64,000 bases of DNA. It comes from a virus (taxonomy: Duplodnaviria > Caudoviricetes). Shown piece by piece: positions 4,706 through 46,795 of the stretch (its first letter is position 1; each line of letters begins with the position of its first letter). The stretch is taken from positions 64,001 through 128,000 of IMG/VR virus record IMGVR_UViG_3300021431_000075. One strand, given 5' to 3'. The notes under the pieces are model-generated. The model did not search any database, was not told the origin of the DNA, and saw nothing but the letters and a program-made list of their open reading frames with translations. The position numbers and the translations under genes were made by a program.

Positions 4706-6631
4706 TTAAATATATGAGACAAGTTGCATCTTATTATCAACAAAAGTTTTCAAGCCAATCCTCAGCAAACCATTCTCATGTATATCTATCAACTCGTCAC
4801 TCCACTCATCAAGCAACAAGTTTCCTTCTTTATCTATCAAATTAAACTTCTTGTCTGTATTAAGTATAACGATGTAGCCATTTCTCTCATTATCTTCATT
4901 ATCGACAATATGAATATACATAATCCAGTCTCCTTCATCAAGACTATCATCAAGAAGGTATCTATGCTCCTTCACTGAATAATAATTTATCTTGTCATCT
5001 CTATTCTCATCTTCTATATGAACTACAACTACATAACCGAATACATATTCAATATCTATCAGATTGTCAAGAAGAACATTTCCTGACGTATCTATAATTT
5101 TCTTTAAACCGGCATCCTTGACAACAGCAAAACCGTATTCATTAAAATTTTTCACTATTGATTCAAACCACTTATTCTTTGAAACAAGTGAACGTTTCTT
5201 ACAATCAATAAAATTCCAACGTCCATCAATATTCTGTACAGCAGAAAAACCGTTTGATGGATGTTTGATTTCCAAGAACATATCTTTCATTATATGCTTT
5301 CCTTTTGTATCAATAATCGACATAAATCCAGTGTCTTTCAGTTTGACAACAGCAACTCCATCTATAAAATTGCTACAATCTGAAAACTCTTCATCTGTTA
5401 TATAGTTGCCTTTCTTATCAACAAAAGAAAAAACATCTTTAGACTTCTTAACCATGGCACAACCACATTGAAACCCAAAACATCTATAAAACATCTTGTT
5501 CATAATGATATTTCCAGTCTTGTCTATATATGTACTACATGCAGAACTGCTATTGTTTGATATTCTAACTGGAGCGTATCCTTCTGAAAAAACTCCAACA
5601 TCGTAATAATGAAATGTATCTATTGCAATGTTTCCATCCTTATCCAAGAAATCCCTTCCAAACTCCCCGTCGCTATTCTTATACTGAACTCTGATTAAGC
5701 CATCACTCAATTCTTCCGAAAACAGTAAAACATTAGAAAGAACCGTTTTCTTCTTTTTGATATCCATCAAAGTCCAGTACTCACGAGGCATTTCATATGC
5801 AACTATATCTGTTCCTTCAATAAAATCAAGATTCGTGATTTCTTGTTCTTTAAACATAAACTTTCCAGCTTCCAAGTCATATATATTGCATATGTTTTCA
5901 TCTCCCGACACACATCCATAAACTCCGATAAATCTTTTATTATAAACAAAGTCAATAAACCCCTTATCTCTCCAACATGGTATGCGTTTGGTTTCGTCGC
6001 AAACTACATTTCCTTTATCATCAACAATCAAGAAATAATCTTCATTATTGCAAATGAACGCATAATAACCGTCGGTGCCGTTCAAAAGTCTGTTTTGCAA
6101 TGCAAAAACCGTACAAATTCTAATTATTTCTTTCTCCGAATAATCCGGCTTAAACAAATCTACAAGATTTTTTATATAGAATTTAACATCCGGTTTTTCA
6201 TTATTGTCATTCAGAATGCCACATTGAAACAAACGTTGTTCATCTACATTTTCATATGATTCGTCAATATAACAAATCTTATAATCCAAATCATATTTGC
6301 TGCTAACGCAAATGATATTAATAAGGTACATCATGCATTGAACGAACAAATATGGAGAAAGAGAACCAATATAATTAAAAACAACATCTATAAAATCTCC
6401 GTCATCTCCATAATAATCGATTTCATAATCTATATGAACGCCATTTCCATAATCCGTATTCTTCATTTGTTCCAGCACGTCATCAATGACAGTATTCGGA
6501 GGTTCATTAAACATAATCCTCACAACAAGCCTATCATAATTATTCTCATCGTTATCAACAACATCATCCGTTTCAACTTTACCAAGAAGGTCCTCGTTCA
6601 ACATATATCTTTCTACGCTGCTCATAAACAT
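4706..6631 (-). CDS. WG-repeat protein with conserved acidic leader
   Basis: 641 aa; leader YMLNEDLLGKVETDDVVD; FSEGYAPV...YIDKTGNII repeats. Confidence 0.85.
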   Translation of the reverse strand: MFMSSVERYMLNEDLLGKVETDDVVDNDENNYDRLVVRIMFNEPPNTVIDDVLEQMKNTDYGNGVHIDYEIDYYGDDGDFIDVVFNYIGSLSPYLFVQCMMYLINIICVSSKYDLDYKICYIDESYENVDEQRLFQCGILNDNNEKPDVKFYIKNLVDLFKPDYSEKEIIRICTVFALQNRLLNGTDGYYAFICNNEDYFLIVDDKGNVVCDETKRIPCWRDKGFIDFVYNKRFIGVYGCVSGDENICNIYDLEAGKFMFKEQEITNLDFIEGTDIVAYEMPREYWTLMDIKKKKTVLSNVLLFSEELSDGLIRVQYKNSDGEFGRDFLDKDGNIAIDTFHYYDVGVFSEGYAPVRISNNSSSACSTYIDKTGNIIMNKMFYRCFGFQCGCAMVKKSKDVFSFVDKKGNYITDEEFSDCSNFIDGVAVVKLKDTGFMSIIDTKGKHIMKDMFLEIKHPSNGFSAVQNIDGRWNFIDCKKRSLVSKNKWFESIVKNFNEYGFAVVKDAGLKKIIDTSGNVLLDNLIDIEYVFGYVVVVHIEDENRDDKINYYSVKEHRYLLDDSLDEGDWIMYIHIVDNEDNERNGYIVILNTDKKFNLIDKEGNLLLDEWSDELIDIHENGLLRIGLKTFVDNKMQLVSYI

Positions 6632-43727: not shown

Positions 43728-43943
43728 TCATTTCTTTGATTTTTTATTCAACATGTTAATAATTTTCAACAAGTTATCATGAAGATATTTTTCAGTTGAA
43801 ACAGAAATGGTTCTCATAAATTCATCGAGAACATCTTTAGCGCCCTCTATGTATGCATCACGACCTTCTTTATTATCGTCATAGCCATCTTGATCGATTA
43901 CTTGTGGGAACTTCTCTAATGCAGTTTCTTCGATTGATTTCAT
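43728..43943 (-). CDS. Hypothetical protein (start moved to MKSIEETA)
   Basis: IEETALEKFP...RDAYIEGA motif. Confidence 0.65.
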   Translation of the reverse strand: MKSIEETALEKFPQVIDQDGYDDNKEGRDAYIEGAKDVLDEFMRTISVSTEKYLHDNLLKIINMLNKKSKK

Positions 43944-44079
43944 TTTTAATTGTGTTTTAATGTTTTCAAAGTTTTCAAAGTGCAAATTTAGCATTTTATC
44001 TGAATATCTGCAAGAATTTATACAAAAATTAACAATAAAAATGCTTGCTGATTTCTCAACAAGCATTATAATTATAATT

Positions 44080-44496
44080 TCATTTCTTCTTTTTTGTCAA
44101 ATGACTCTTTATCCCTCCACATCGTCTACTACAACAAGGATTATTTTTAAAAGGCAAATCTTTCTTCCGTATCAAAAACTCTTTTCCACATATAGGACAT
44201 ATGACAGGAACCAATTCTCTATGTTTATGGTCTTTCACTAAATTATAATAACTGGATATAACTTGAAGATTCTCTATTCTATCATCCATTCTATTACCAT
44301 TTATATGATCTACATGAAAACCTACTGGAACATCTGTTTCATAATAACTTGTATACAAATATTTGGCATAACTCATACTTATCATATTACCTTCATTATC
44401 TCTTAATGTAGCAACTCTCCTTGGTTCTTTATTTGTATTGATGTATAGTCTTTTAAAGCCCTTATTCTTATAATATTCTGAAACCTCTCCAATCAT
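44080..44496 (-). CDS. HNH endonuclease (homing-type) with C-terminal zinc finger
   Basis: HVDHINGNRMDDRIENLQ; CPICGKEF...CCSRRC. Confidence 0.9.
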   Translation of the reverse strand: MIGEVSEYYKNKGFKRLYINTNKEPRRVATLRDNEGNMISMSYAKYLYTSYYETDVPVGFHVDHINGNRMDDRIENLQVISSYYNLVKDHKHRELVPVICPICGKEFLIRKKDLPFKNNPCCSRRCGGIKSHLTKKKK

Positions 44497-44515
44497 ATAT
44501 AAAATTAAAAAAATG

Positions 44516-44589
44516 TGGACCAGCCAGGGCTTGAACCTGGGACCTATGGCTTATGAGGCCATTGCTCTAACCGACTGAGCTACAAGTCC
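44516..44589 (-). tRNA. tRNA with CAT anticodon, likely tRNA-Ile2 (lysidine); elongator Met not excluded; CCA not encoded
   Basis: GGACTTG-TA-GCTC-AGTCGGTTA-GAGC-A-ATGGC-CTCATAA-GCCAT-AGGTC-CCAGG-TTCAAGC-CCTGG-CTGGTCC-A cloverleaf. Lacks initiator features. Confidence 0.93.
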
Positions 44590-44598
44590 ATTATATTT

Positions 44599-44783
44599 AA
44601 GAGTCTCTGGCCTTATGTATGTCTGCAGTTTTATACTGTTTGTACTTCACAGTCCACAGAGTGCTGATCCCCTATTATGCCTTCAGGAAAACTACCAGAC
44701 CGTCCAGTCATTCAGAATCCGATTCAGGCGAGTAGCATCTCATGGTAGTGTCTTTTGATGCCGGCTCTTTTACGGAGACTCTT
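44599..44783 (-). ncRNA. Unassigned 185-nt structured RNA upstream of the tRNA
   Basis: Perfect 9-bp terminal stem AAGAGTCTC/GAGACTCTT; internal ACTACCA/TGGTAGT, TCTGTGG/CTGCAGA and ACTGT/ACAGT stems. Starts 20 nt downstream of a consensus promoter. Confidence 0.7.
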
Positions 44784-44803
44784 TGTATTTCTAATTTCTG
44801 ATG

Positions 44804-44834
44804 CAAAGATAATGCTTTTTCGCCATCCGGCAAA
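44804..44834 (-). promoter_or_regulatory. Bacteroidetes sigma-A promoter (-33 TTTG / -7 TATCTTTG)
   Basis: TTTG-N19-TATCTTTG on the minus strand, upstream of the ncRNA-tRNA-HNH cluster. Confidence 0.85.
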
Positions 44835-44860
44835 AGAAAAATCCAAAAAAATTTTAGTTT

Positions 44861-46795
44861 TTAGACAAATAAAGCGATTTCCTTGCTTTTGCAATCCAGA
44901 AAAACATCATTCTCAACCTTTACCAAACCTCCCGGCTTCAACACCACATTTCCATCAATCCACTTATCAAACACCACACTTCCATCTTCACTAACGACAT
45001 TGCACAGCCCGTTCTTGTCCATGACAATATGATATGAATCAACACCGTAGCCGATTATTTCCTTTATCTTATCATATGAACGAGATGGAATCCATTCGTC
45101 AAGAATAAGCCCATTTCCAATCACATAATAGTTATACATGCTTTCCGCATTCCAAGAACCATTTATTTCAGAAGAAGATGACGCTTTAATCATCTTTGTA
45201 ATGTTCGGGCGCTTTGAAACAACAAGCAACTTTCCATATGCTCTTTCCAGACCATACCCGAGTTTCGAACTGTCGAAAAGAGCATGACCGTCTTTTTCAA
45301 TAACTCTCTTTGTATAAACTTTCTTGCTCTCTCCGCCGACTTTAATTTCATTCGTCGTCTCGACTATCGCTGTTCCATTATGAAAGTCACCGACTTCATC
45401 AAATCTCTCGTCAGATATAAAGTTCCCGTTCTTGTCCATAAAGGTCCAACCGTCTTCATCCTGAACCGATACAAGACCATCTTCAAATAAACTCGTATCC
45501 TGAAACATCTTGTCCGTTATAGGCAATCCGGTCCTATCGATAAAAGTGTAGTTTTCTTCATCAACCTGCACCCGCGCGATTCCGTCCGAAAAATAACTAC
45601 GGTACATATATTTGCCATCGGACACAAACTCACCTTTCTTGTTGATTACCATATAATCATAATTAATGTCACCTTCTTTGACAGCGAAAGCAAGACCTTC
45701 TGAAAAATCGGAACAGTCCCTGAACTTCTTTTTCATAAAGAACTTTCCGTTCGTATCAACATATGTCTTCTTCTTGTCACCAAGTTCAACCACAGCACAC
45801 CCGTCACTAAAGGCTCGACATGATCTAAACCACTTTGTGCTCATCAACTTGCCATCCCTATCTATGAAATTATAGCATTGCTCTTTTCTTTCCGCATCCT
45901 TGACGACAAACCAGCCCTCCGAATATTTTCCGATTTCTGCCATATTCTCAATAATGAACTCTTCCTTGTCTATGCTGTAAATGCTGTATCTTGAACTGTC
46001 CTCCGAATACACGACAAGTCCGAGTTCTTCATAAACCCTGCAATAATCTCCATCGTTATCAAACAAGAATTTCTTGTTCTTCATGTCATAAACATTGCAA
46101 CCGGAAACGCCACTTCCAAGTACCAGATAATCTCCATGCACAGCATTGACCATACATCCAGAATTACACAAATCTCTATCTGGCGTAATCTGGTTTCCTT
46201 TTGAGTCAACAACAACATATTTGGTATGAAACGGATAATTAATCAGGAATGCATAATAACCGTCACGACCCTTCAGTATATTGTTTTTAATCGCGCTGAC
46301 AGCAATATGCTTCATGACGTCTTTTTCAGAATACTTGGATTTAAATAAGTAAGTGGACAGAACTTGCAGATTTGAACACATCCCAGTTGTGATATGTGTA
46401 ATCAAATCACTTCCTCTAATAGTCCTTATTTCATATTTAACTTTGACCATCAGAAAAGTACTCACAATGCTCATCAATACATCACAAAAGACTCCTATAA
46501 ATGAATCGTTTTCTCTAAACTCAAAATCAATCTTGAAATGTTTGAAATTCGGCTTGTCATTTGAAGAATATGCTATACTGCTCCATATCCTGAACTTGTA
46601 ACTGCACAACTTGTCCAAATCCCGCTTGATTTTTTTAAACGCAACATCTTCACATGAGTAAATATCCACAACTACATGTAACTTGACAGTCTTGATTTCG
46701 TCATCCTCATCGTTATTGTCAGTGACTTCATCTGCTTCAACTTTATCAAGAAGATTTTCTGCCAAATATTTTCTATTAAAATAATCGTTATGCAT
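44861..46795 (-). CDS. WG-repeat protein with conserved acidic leader (orphan copy)
   Basis: 644 aa; leader KYLAENLLDKVEADEVTD; FSDGCAVV, FSEGLAFA, FSDGIARV. Shares GYYAF with 4706-6631. Confidence 0.85.
   Translation of the reverse strand: MHNDYFNRKYLAENLLDKVEADEVTDNNDEDDEIKTVKLHVVVDIYSCEDVAFKKIKRDLDKLCSYKFRIWSSIAYSSNDKPNFKHFKIDFEFRENDSFIGVFCDVLMSIVSTFLMVKVKYEIRTIRGSDLITHITTGMCSNLQVLSTYLFKSKYSEKDVMKHIAVSAIKNNILKGRDGYYAFLINYPFHTKYVVVDSKGNQITPDRDLCNSGCMVNAVHGDYLVLGSGVSGCNVYDMKNKKFLFDNDGDYCRVYEELGLVVYSEDSSRYSIYSIDKEEFIIENMAEIGKYSEGWFVVKDAERKEQCYNFIDRDGKLMSTKWFRSCRAFSDGCAVVELGDKKKTYVDTNGKFFMKKKFRDCSDFSEGLAFAVKEGDINYDYMVINKKGEFVSDGKYMYRSYFSDGIARVQVDEENYTFIDRTGLPITDKMFQDTSLFEDGLVSVQDEDGWTFMDKNGNFISDERFDEVGDFHNGTAIVETTNEIKVGGESKKVYTKRVIEKDGHALFDSSKLGYGLERAYGKLLVVSKRPNITKMIKASSSSEINGSWNAESMYNYYVIGNGLILDEWIPSRSYDKIKEIIGYGVDSYHIVMDKNGLCNVVSEDGSVVFDKWIDGNVVLKPGGLVKVENDVFLDCKSKEIALFV

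Follow-up and report, generated by a model that had tools for sequence, protein, structure and literature searches.

We describe a structured RNA of a megaphage which, judged by its conservation and covariation, is a real, conserved and new family of phage non-coding RNA. It is encoded between a Bacteroidota-type promoter and a tRNA gene, and its ends were found joined head to tail in sequenced material from two studies, as read from two assembled contigs. With moderate confidence, we favour the explanation that this RNA is released by RNase P and circularised.

Genomic context and transcription unit

The analysed window, i.e. the whole stretch of 64,000 nt, comprises bases 64001–128000 of a 673,114-bp virus record, which features direct terminal repeats and a G + C content of 40.7%. 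DNA of this phage is present in sequencing runs labelled as gut or sheep gut metagenomes. The RNA and all surrounding genes are located on the minus strand and are arranged as follows (window coordinates):

Stop at 44861, minus strand: upstream WG-repeat gene, 644 aa
44804..44834, minus strand: Bacteroidota-type promoter by pattern match, with TTTG at 44834–44831, a 19-nt spacer and TATCTTTG at 44811–44804
44790..44803, minus strand: 5' leader from the −7 box to the 5' joint, outside the RNA contigs and presumably removed
44590..44789, minus strand: head-to-tail joined RNA, 200 nt in run X9 (195 nt, 44591–44785, in run X7)
44599..44783, minus strand: structured core of 185 nt, from terminal helix to terminal helix, with covariance model (CM) matches and covariation
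Between the 185-nt core and tRNA(CAU), minus strand: 9-nt spacer
44515..44589, minus strand: tRNA(CAU), found by ARAGORN and Rfam (70 bits), RNase P site 44590|44589
44080..44496, minus strand: HNH endonuclease gene (Pfam HNH_3), between the tRNA and the terminator of the unit
44040..44067, minus strand: intrinsic terminator of the ancestral unit; the same hairpin directly follows the tRNA in L024

TTTG and TATCTTTG are arranged in the −33/−7 promoter form of Bacteroidota. The pattern was seen four times in the window compared to 2.5 expected occurrences, which is not significant alone; neither TTTG nor TTATCTTTGCAT varies among the five phage lineages with the locus, the divergent lineage L029 included. 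The terminal helix of the RNA starts 20 nt past the last G of TATCTTTG and ends 9 nt ahead of the tRNA 5' end (44589), as had been noted in an earlier reading of the same DNA, made without database searches (hereafter the sequence-only reading). The mature 5' end of the tRNA-Pro of this phage lies only 12 nt after its own −7 box, and because of this short distance the transcription start site of the RNA is placed, by analogy, a few nucleotides after the −7 box.

Stops occur in all six frames of the RNA. The earlier statement that it contains no credible ORF therefore holds, and a coding remnant was rejected. With 45% G + C, the RNA exceeds the genome average (40.7%); the claim that it is richer in G + C than its flanks is clearly true only for the side of the downstream HNH gene (23–34%), while the upstream gene ranges from 33–41%.

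The 112-aa ORF downstream of the unit (window 43728–44066) starts within the terminator hairpin (44067–44040). Its true start is probably an internal ATG, since the gene at this place in related phages encodes 71–74 aa.

Homologues and synteny

ENA and Logan assemblies contain orthologues of the 644-aa upstream protein, with identities of 89, 87, 83 and 46%. Downstream of each of them the same promoter recurs, together with a homologous RNA and a tRNA (L023, L024/25/26, L027/28 and L029). An extra copy of the RNA (L050) comes from a JGI metagenome and was the single real addition there. Promoter, RNA and tRNA thus occupy the equivalent place in five phage lineages, and the CM matched six loci with scores of 138–223 bits.

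Other searches returned no homologue of the RNA. Among GenBank phages, blastn matched the tRNA only, pattern scans of IMG/VR gave no matches or chance matches such as L030, and a pattern scan of GTDB genomes yielded eight chance matches. A second copy in the own genome was found neither by BLAST nor by nhmmer. The search for related loci with the 644-aa neighbour as query gave nothing, and a second protein search added no further orthologues of this protein. The contigs L021 and L022, which encode the exact protein, are identical to the window and therefore uninformative as comparators.

The tRNA behind the RNA is a Met-CAU tRNA in three lineages and an Ile-UAU tRNA in two. This swap between lineages raises the possibility that the CAU tRNA is a tRNA-Ile2 of the lysidine type, reading AUA. 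The tRNA itself is always kept although its identity changes, which fits a requirement for RNase P in forming the 3' end of the RNA. The HNH gene between tRNA and terminator is present in three lineages and absent in two (L024 and L029). The region of tRNA and HNH gene spans 44080–44589 in the window, 4550–5061 in L023 and 4714–5226 in L027; the corresponding region of L024, without the HNH gene, spans 4714–4830. In L024 and L029 the terminator directly follows the tRNA, while in the window the same terminator is found after the HNH gene. On the basis of this comparison, the ancestral unit is composed of promoter, RNA, tRNA and terminator, and the HNH gene is a later insertion. The tRNA and the HNH gene look like a mobile cassette.

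One locus found via the HNH gene (L002) was considered as a further RNA locus and rejected: it belongs to a different phage, has a tRNA array ahead of the HNH gene and lacks a homologous RNA. This IMG/VR phage is unrelated; its orthologous HNH gene (60% identity) comes after a tRNA-Ile(UAU) (L002:3738–3983). Just upstream lies an apparent tRNA 5' half resembling the tRNA-Met of the window, which may be the scar of tRNA-targeted homing. In the array (L002:3340–3660; Glu, Gln, Leu), each tRNA was observed after the same promoter-like motif of about 25 nt (CCATTTGTGAAAATCGTGTAA...).

Conserved secondary structure

Taken as a single sequence, the RNA does not stand out. Its MFE z-score was calculated to be −0.33 in linear and −0.42 in circular form (−0.73 for the other strand), which is uninformative, and the window contains 61 perfect 9-bp inverted repeats spaced 100–250 nt apart compared to about 58 in shuffles. 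The sequence alone is thus within chance, while the fold is far beyond chance after comparison with the homologues. Its elements in the window are:

44775..44783, minus strand: helix T, 5' strand AAGAGUCUC, pairs with 44607–44599; 9 pairs, 5 compensatory, 100% paired
44730..44767, minus strand: hairpin A+B, GAG and CGGCAUC with GAUGCUA and CUC; the loop carries ACUACCA
44743..44749, minus strand: helix K, 5' strand ACUACCA in the loop of hairpin B, pairs with 44697–44691
44714..44719, minus strand: helix D', 5' strand GAUUCU, pairs with GGGAUC at 44671–44666
44691..44697, minus strand: helix K, 3' strand UGGUAGU, inside the loop of helix D'
44666..44671, minus strand: helix D', 3' strand GGGAUC, with invariant AUAAUAG just 5' of it (44678–44672)
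44622..44660, minus strand: 3' hairpin F+G, UCUGUGG-ACUGU with ACAGU-CUGCAGA; loop GAAGUACAA at 44648–44640
44599..44607, minus strand: helix T, 3' strand GAGACUCUU, values as for the 5' strand

The consensus was counted on a model-fitted alignment of six sequences and comprises the helices T, A+B, K (pseudoknot), C, D', F and G. The proposed pairs are formed in 96.8% of the cells compared to 88.2 ± 0.9% in shuffles. Pairs changed on both sides number 18, whereas shuffles gave 4.2 ± 1.6 (0/500), and at most four such pairs were obtained in a control in which the partner was slid by 1–3 columns. RNAalifold, applied to an unfitted MAFFT alignment, returned 47 pairs, with compensatory changes in 18, and recovered helices T, A/B, C, D', F and G. 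Collection of homologues had been proposed in the sequence-only reading, and those obtained yielded compensatory pairs far beyond shuffles.

The covariation set consists of five lineages, of which L029 supplies most events; for L029, helices K and G were placed in register manually. In this curated register, 32 of the 50 pairs differ between the window and L029; 29 of them still pair, and double changes number 22. Identity between the two sequences is 81% in unpaired columns and just 44% in paired columns. Pairing that is kept while the paired letters change is, in a comparison of sequences, the signature of a functional RNA fold.

Both the terminal helix (44783–44775 with 44607–44599) and the inner GCC/GGC pairing (44729–44727 with 44612–44610) described before are present, and in L029 helix T reads AGAAAUCGAG/CUCGGUUUCU. 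Hairpin A+B has 10 pairs, 7 of which are changed on both sides, and is 98% paired; in the curated register, 6 of the 7 pairs of stem B (GGCAUC/GAUGCU region) covary. The sequence-only reading had regarded GGCAUC/GAUGCU as a possible pseudoknot and ACUACCA/UGGUAGU as the closure of a domain. Each pairing exists (44762–44757 with 44739–44734 and 44749–44743 with 44697–44691, respectively), but the assigned roles had to be revised: the former is a plain hairpin stem and the latter, helix K, the pseudoknot helix. Helix K is 93% paired in the model-fitted alignment and appears as CUAUCC/GGAUAG with two compensatory pairs in L029 (curated register). It represents a pseudoknot or a loop-loop contact, which may form within the same molecule or between molecules.

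Helix D' (GAUUCU/GGRAUC; 6 pairs, 3 compensatory, 100% paired) had been missed before and was found by RNAalifold. Our first-proposed helices D (CGGA/UCCK) and E (GC/GC) were rejected, as they are weakly supported and partly displaced by D'. The 3' hairpin was recovered as described earlier (44660–44622); its helix F has 7 pairs, 2 of them compensatory, and helix G has 3 compensatory pairs in the curated register. In the resulting fold, helix T opens into a junction of several helices, which gives rise to a long hairpin, another long-range helix and the 3' hairpin; a loop-loop helix of 6–7 bp connects the loop of the long hairpin to that of the other long-range helix.

Five single-stranded blocks are invariant: UAAAA, GAAACGG, UGAAU, AUAAUAG and AUACAUA. 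The compact fold and these invariant unpaired blocks suggest an RNA that may act in trans, bind a partner, be protected from exonucleases and possibly multimerise. The loop of the 3' hairpin (44640–44648) contains a 4-nt palindrome between A residues, with the letters GUAC in five sequences but GCGC in L029. This palindrome, whose retention is based on one evolutionary event, hints at a site of loop-loop dimerisation. The layout of the loop resembles kissing-loop dimerisation sites.

RNA contigs and head-to-tail joints

Parts of the stretch are contained in 20 sequencing runs, six of which are RNA libraries. The RNA runs X5, X7 and X9 and the DNA run X8 were compared, and two of them contained a contig of the RNA:

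X9 (RNA, same sample as the likely source DNA, 2013): 230-nt contig, depth 87, covers 44590–44789 only
X7 (RNA, another study, 2017): 225-nt contig, depth 21.5, covers 44591–44785 only

Both contigs match without mismatches, leave the flanks uncovered and contain a joint at which the sequence goes back, from 44789 to 44590 without shared letters in X9 and from 44785 to 44591 with one ambiguous letter in X7. Their lengths equal the unit plus 30 nt (k − 1), as an isolated cycle in a k = 31 graph gives. No permuted joint is present in the genome or in the DNA contigs L021 and L022, which are collinear.

Matching cover of the neighbouring phage genes was absent from X9 and X7. A contig linking the RNA to the phage tRNA was also absent from these runs, in which contigs covering the tRNA carry several mismatches. 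Because the contigs cover the RNA without the neighbouring genes, the RNA is discrete and far above phage mRNA in abundance, and the discrete phage non-coding RNA postulated earlier was recovered as such in two studies. In two rumen or gut metatranscriptomes, no other phage transcript seems to come near it in abundance. Run X5 yielded low-depth pieces of the HNH gene and no contig of the RNA, a case in which missing cover is not informative; run X8 contained mainly foreign tRNA look-alikes. For the RNA runs X11–X13, the share of words would fit the RNA alone.

Position 44590 is a U, the last leader nucleotide before G+1 of the tRNA (44589), and thus the 3' end of the X9 joint coincides exactly with the RNase P site. 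The release by tRNA processing that had been suggested before is thereby supported; the tRNA is found downstream of the RNA in all five lineages. The 3' end in X7 is 1–2 nt shorter than the RNase P site. Measured from the −7 box, the 5' joint is 15–19 nt downstream (A44789, or C44785/A44786), so that a short leader must be missing if transcription starts close to the box.

The contig joints point to a real covalent circle in the cell, which we regard as probable. The difference between the joints of the two runs (200 nt compared to 195 nt) speaks against it. Joints 4–5 nt apart are what ragged ends of a stable linear RNA (about 44789–44785 to 44590) would give if reverse transcriptase switched onto a nearby 3' end. 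In such a molecule the terminal helix would keep the 3' end close, and a few reads would suffice to close a branch-free k-mer path; the joints were seen in contigs, from which the frequency of the junction is not derivable. Against this explanation, junction k-mers must recur, which at the depth of 21.5 in X7 amounts to about a tenth of the cover over the joint. As a rule, template switching occurs much less often. The joints furthermore contain no extra letters and share 0–1 nt, so that microhomology is not the driver, and the signal recurs in two independent studies. For the comparable bacterial RNA DucS, circles were confirmed with RNase R and junction probes (PMC10504365). A linear RNA with template switching is accordingly the less likely explanation compared to the circle, and we consider it unlikely, albeit the strongest competitor.

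Proposed biogenesis and function

According to the preferred explanation, host RNA polymerase would transcribe the RNA and the tRNA as one unit from the dedicated Bacteroidota-type promoter. Cleavage by RNase P at the tRNA 5' end would produce the 3' end of the RNA with a 3'-OH, and a 5' leader of about 10 nt would be lost. The terminal helix of 9–10 bp would hold the two A/U-rich tails together until they are joined, giving a covalently closed RNA of about 195–200 nt that accumulates far above phage mRNAs.

The joining activity would most likely be a host RNA ligase, which is favoured because no ligase was detected in the phage. Profiles for RtcB, PF09414 and TIGR01209 did not match in the phage genome, which is a weak result, as most genes of this genome lack a known identity; PF09511 was likewise without a match, but the control genomes did not match either and this result is void. 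The control genome of Bacteroides thetaiotaomicron contains RtcB and Ro60. RtcB needs a 3'-phosphate, while RNase P leaves a 3'-OH, an end that RtcB cannot join. The activity could be a ligase for 3'-OH and 5'-P ends, different end-forming nucleases or a self-catalysed attack of the 3'-OH.

In the last case the RNA would be a ribozyme, whose 3'-OH, exposed by RNase P, attacks near its own 5' end and frees the leader. Group I introns cyclise with release of a leader, use alternative cyclisation sites and have a terminal G at the 3' end. Such a reaction would agree with the complex and conserved fold, its pseudoknot and its invariant single-stranded blocks; a 3'-OH provides the suitable chemistry, and a ligase gene was not found in the phage. 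The 5' joint downstream of the expected transcription start site, which varies from 44789 to 44785/6, also resembles the behaviour of group I introns. However, the RNA shows no similarity to Rfam ribozymes, its 3' nucleotide is a U instead of the terminal G of group I introns and the 3' joint in X7 is also shifted by 1–2 nt. In vitro, self-circularisation was not seen for DucS, which is the closest precedent (PMC10504365). We therefore consider a self-circularising ribozyme to be quite improbable.

The structured RNA could also be only a cis-acting leader through which the downstream tRNA (and HNH gene) is controlled in its processing, stability or expression, with the released piece as a by-product, since it always adjoins the tRNA and shares its promoter. 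This appears very improbable: the identity of the tRNA changed across lineages while the RNA fold was kept, a contig from RNA to tRNA is missing in the two runs rich in the RNA (X9 and X7), and other tRNAs of the phage have short leaders, as in the case of tRNA-Pro mentioned above. The invariant unpaired blocks additionally suggest a partner in trans.

Regarding function, our best guess is that the circularised RNA works in trans during infection, binding proteins or serving as a scaffold while resisting nucleases. A broader proposal is that circular structured RNAs released by RNase P and linked to tRNAs form a class in huge phages, and that the present RNA either circularises itself by a new ribozyme activity or assembles into RNA-only multimers; at present this is speculative and rather improbable. 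Multimers come into question because the loop-loop helix covaries and the GUAC/GCGC loop is palindromic, by analogy to pRNA rings and ROOL/GOLLD cages.

To our knowledge, bacterial circular RNAs outside self-splicing introns amount to a handful of cases whose biogenesis is unsolved, and the biology of megaphages is almost entirely unknown. The locus offers a new structured RNA family from megaphages and a compact, conserved test case in which the promoter and the 3' cut by RNase P are defined, a terminal helix places the ends side by side and covariation supports the fold. Should the circle be real, the biogenesis of bacterial circular RNAs would be directly testable at this locus, and phages would seem to use nuclease-proof RNAs in infection. 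A class of circular RNAs in huge phages, if true, would be a previously unseen layer of phage RNA biology.

Comparison with known RNAs

In a search of the region 44400–45000 against Rfam 15, only the tRNA was matched, both at the gathering score and at E ≤ 10. This check had been proposed in the sequence-only reading; its outcome supports the novelty of the RNA and agrees with the statement that no family can be assigned.

DucS of Bacillus altitudinis is a non-coding RNA of about 200 nt with a linear/circular dual form, the circles of which were validated (PMC10504365). Its circles have a fixed 3' junction and variable 5' junctions, depend on a stem and do not derive from an intron; the ligase is unidentified (PMC10504365). 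The phage RNA resembles DucS in its size of about 200 nt, a near-fixed 3' junction and variable 5' junctions, as well as in a permuted RNA joint found in two studies opposite collinear DNA. Unlike DucS, which is chromosomal, from a Firmicute and has its 3' end near a terminator, it is encoded by a phage and has a 3' end set by tRNA and RNase P. The two RNAs are unrelated in sequence and fold, and the phage circle is deduced from contigs.

T4 'species 1 and 2' (RNAs C and D) are small stable RNAs in the tRNA cluster of T4 that are matured by host tRNA enzymes. Like these RNAs, the novel RNA is encoded by a phage, co-transcribed with a tRNA and would be processed by host tRNA enzymes; RNAs C and D are smaller, are not reported to be circular and are likened here by description only. 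By analogy, the novel RNA would work most like DucS-type circular non-coding RNAs and the stable RNAs of the T4 tRNA operon. It differs from both in that it is a new family in sequence and structure with its 3' end tied to a tRNA.

The pRNA of phi29 has about 170 nt, its own promoter and paired ends, and its loops pair between molecules to form the portal ring. An own promoter, paired 5' and 3' ends and complementary loops are likewise features of the novel RNA. Unlike pRNA, it gave no match to RF00044, and its covarying 7-bp loop-loop helix may be intra- or intermolecular.

Y RNAs (YrlA/YrlB) are similar in being closed by a terminal stem and in their occurrence in phages and next to tRNAs. 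In contrast to Y RNAs, the novel RNA has no Rfam match, its terminal stem covaries freely (5 of 9 pairs compensatory) without keeping a Ro-binding sequence, and the phage has no match for Ro60 (TROVE) or RtcB. Ro60 (TROVE, PF05731) is absent from the 673-kb genome, while the control genomes were matched.

A circular isoform of bacterial RNase P RNA, circM1, is reported to be formed after transcription by an unidentified ligase (preprint 10.1101/2025.06.30.662392). It shares with the novel RNA a structured molecule with paired termini and a circular form. The novel RNA, however, does not match RNase P models, and its long-range helix starts in a hairpin loop and not after P3.

The size of 185 nt and the paired termini would suit a 6S-like phage RNA by which host RNA polymerase is sequestered. 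No 6S model of Rfam was matched, even at E ≤ 10, and covariation backs a branched, pseudoknotted fold with a multi-helix junction, in which the large central bubble of the 6S rod is absent. The doubt about 6S RNA expressed in the sequence-only reading was thus well founded; the assignment was rejected, and a 6S-like role is the least probable of the explanations considered.

Further candidates were rejected as well. For a group I intron, the model Intron_gpI was unmatched, the nucleotide at the 3' joint is U44590 and the tRNA is intact. Hammerhead, twister, HDV-like/theta, hatchet and pistol ribozymes gave no match at E ≤ 10 on either strand. A rolling-circle template of the DRT2/neo type is not in agreement with stops in every frame of the 195- and 200-nt units and with the signal in RNA libraries.

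Other tRNA genes of the phage

Only five tRNA genes were detected by ARAGORN in the 673-kb genome, a low number for so large a phage. Upstream of one of them, a tRNA-Arg(CCU) gene outside the window (G000:C1:247307–247500), lie about 190 nt of non-coding sequence. This region features three copies of a GGATATTTGA(G/A)TATCG-like motif and a hairpin TCTGTCG...CGACAGA, and may be another structured tRNA leader.
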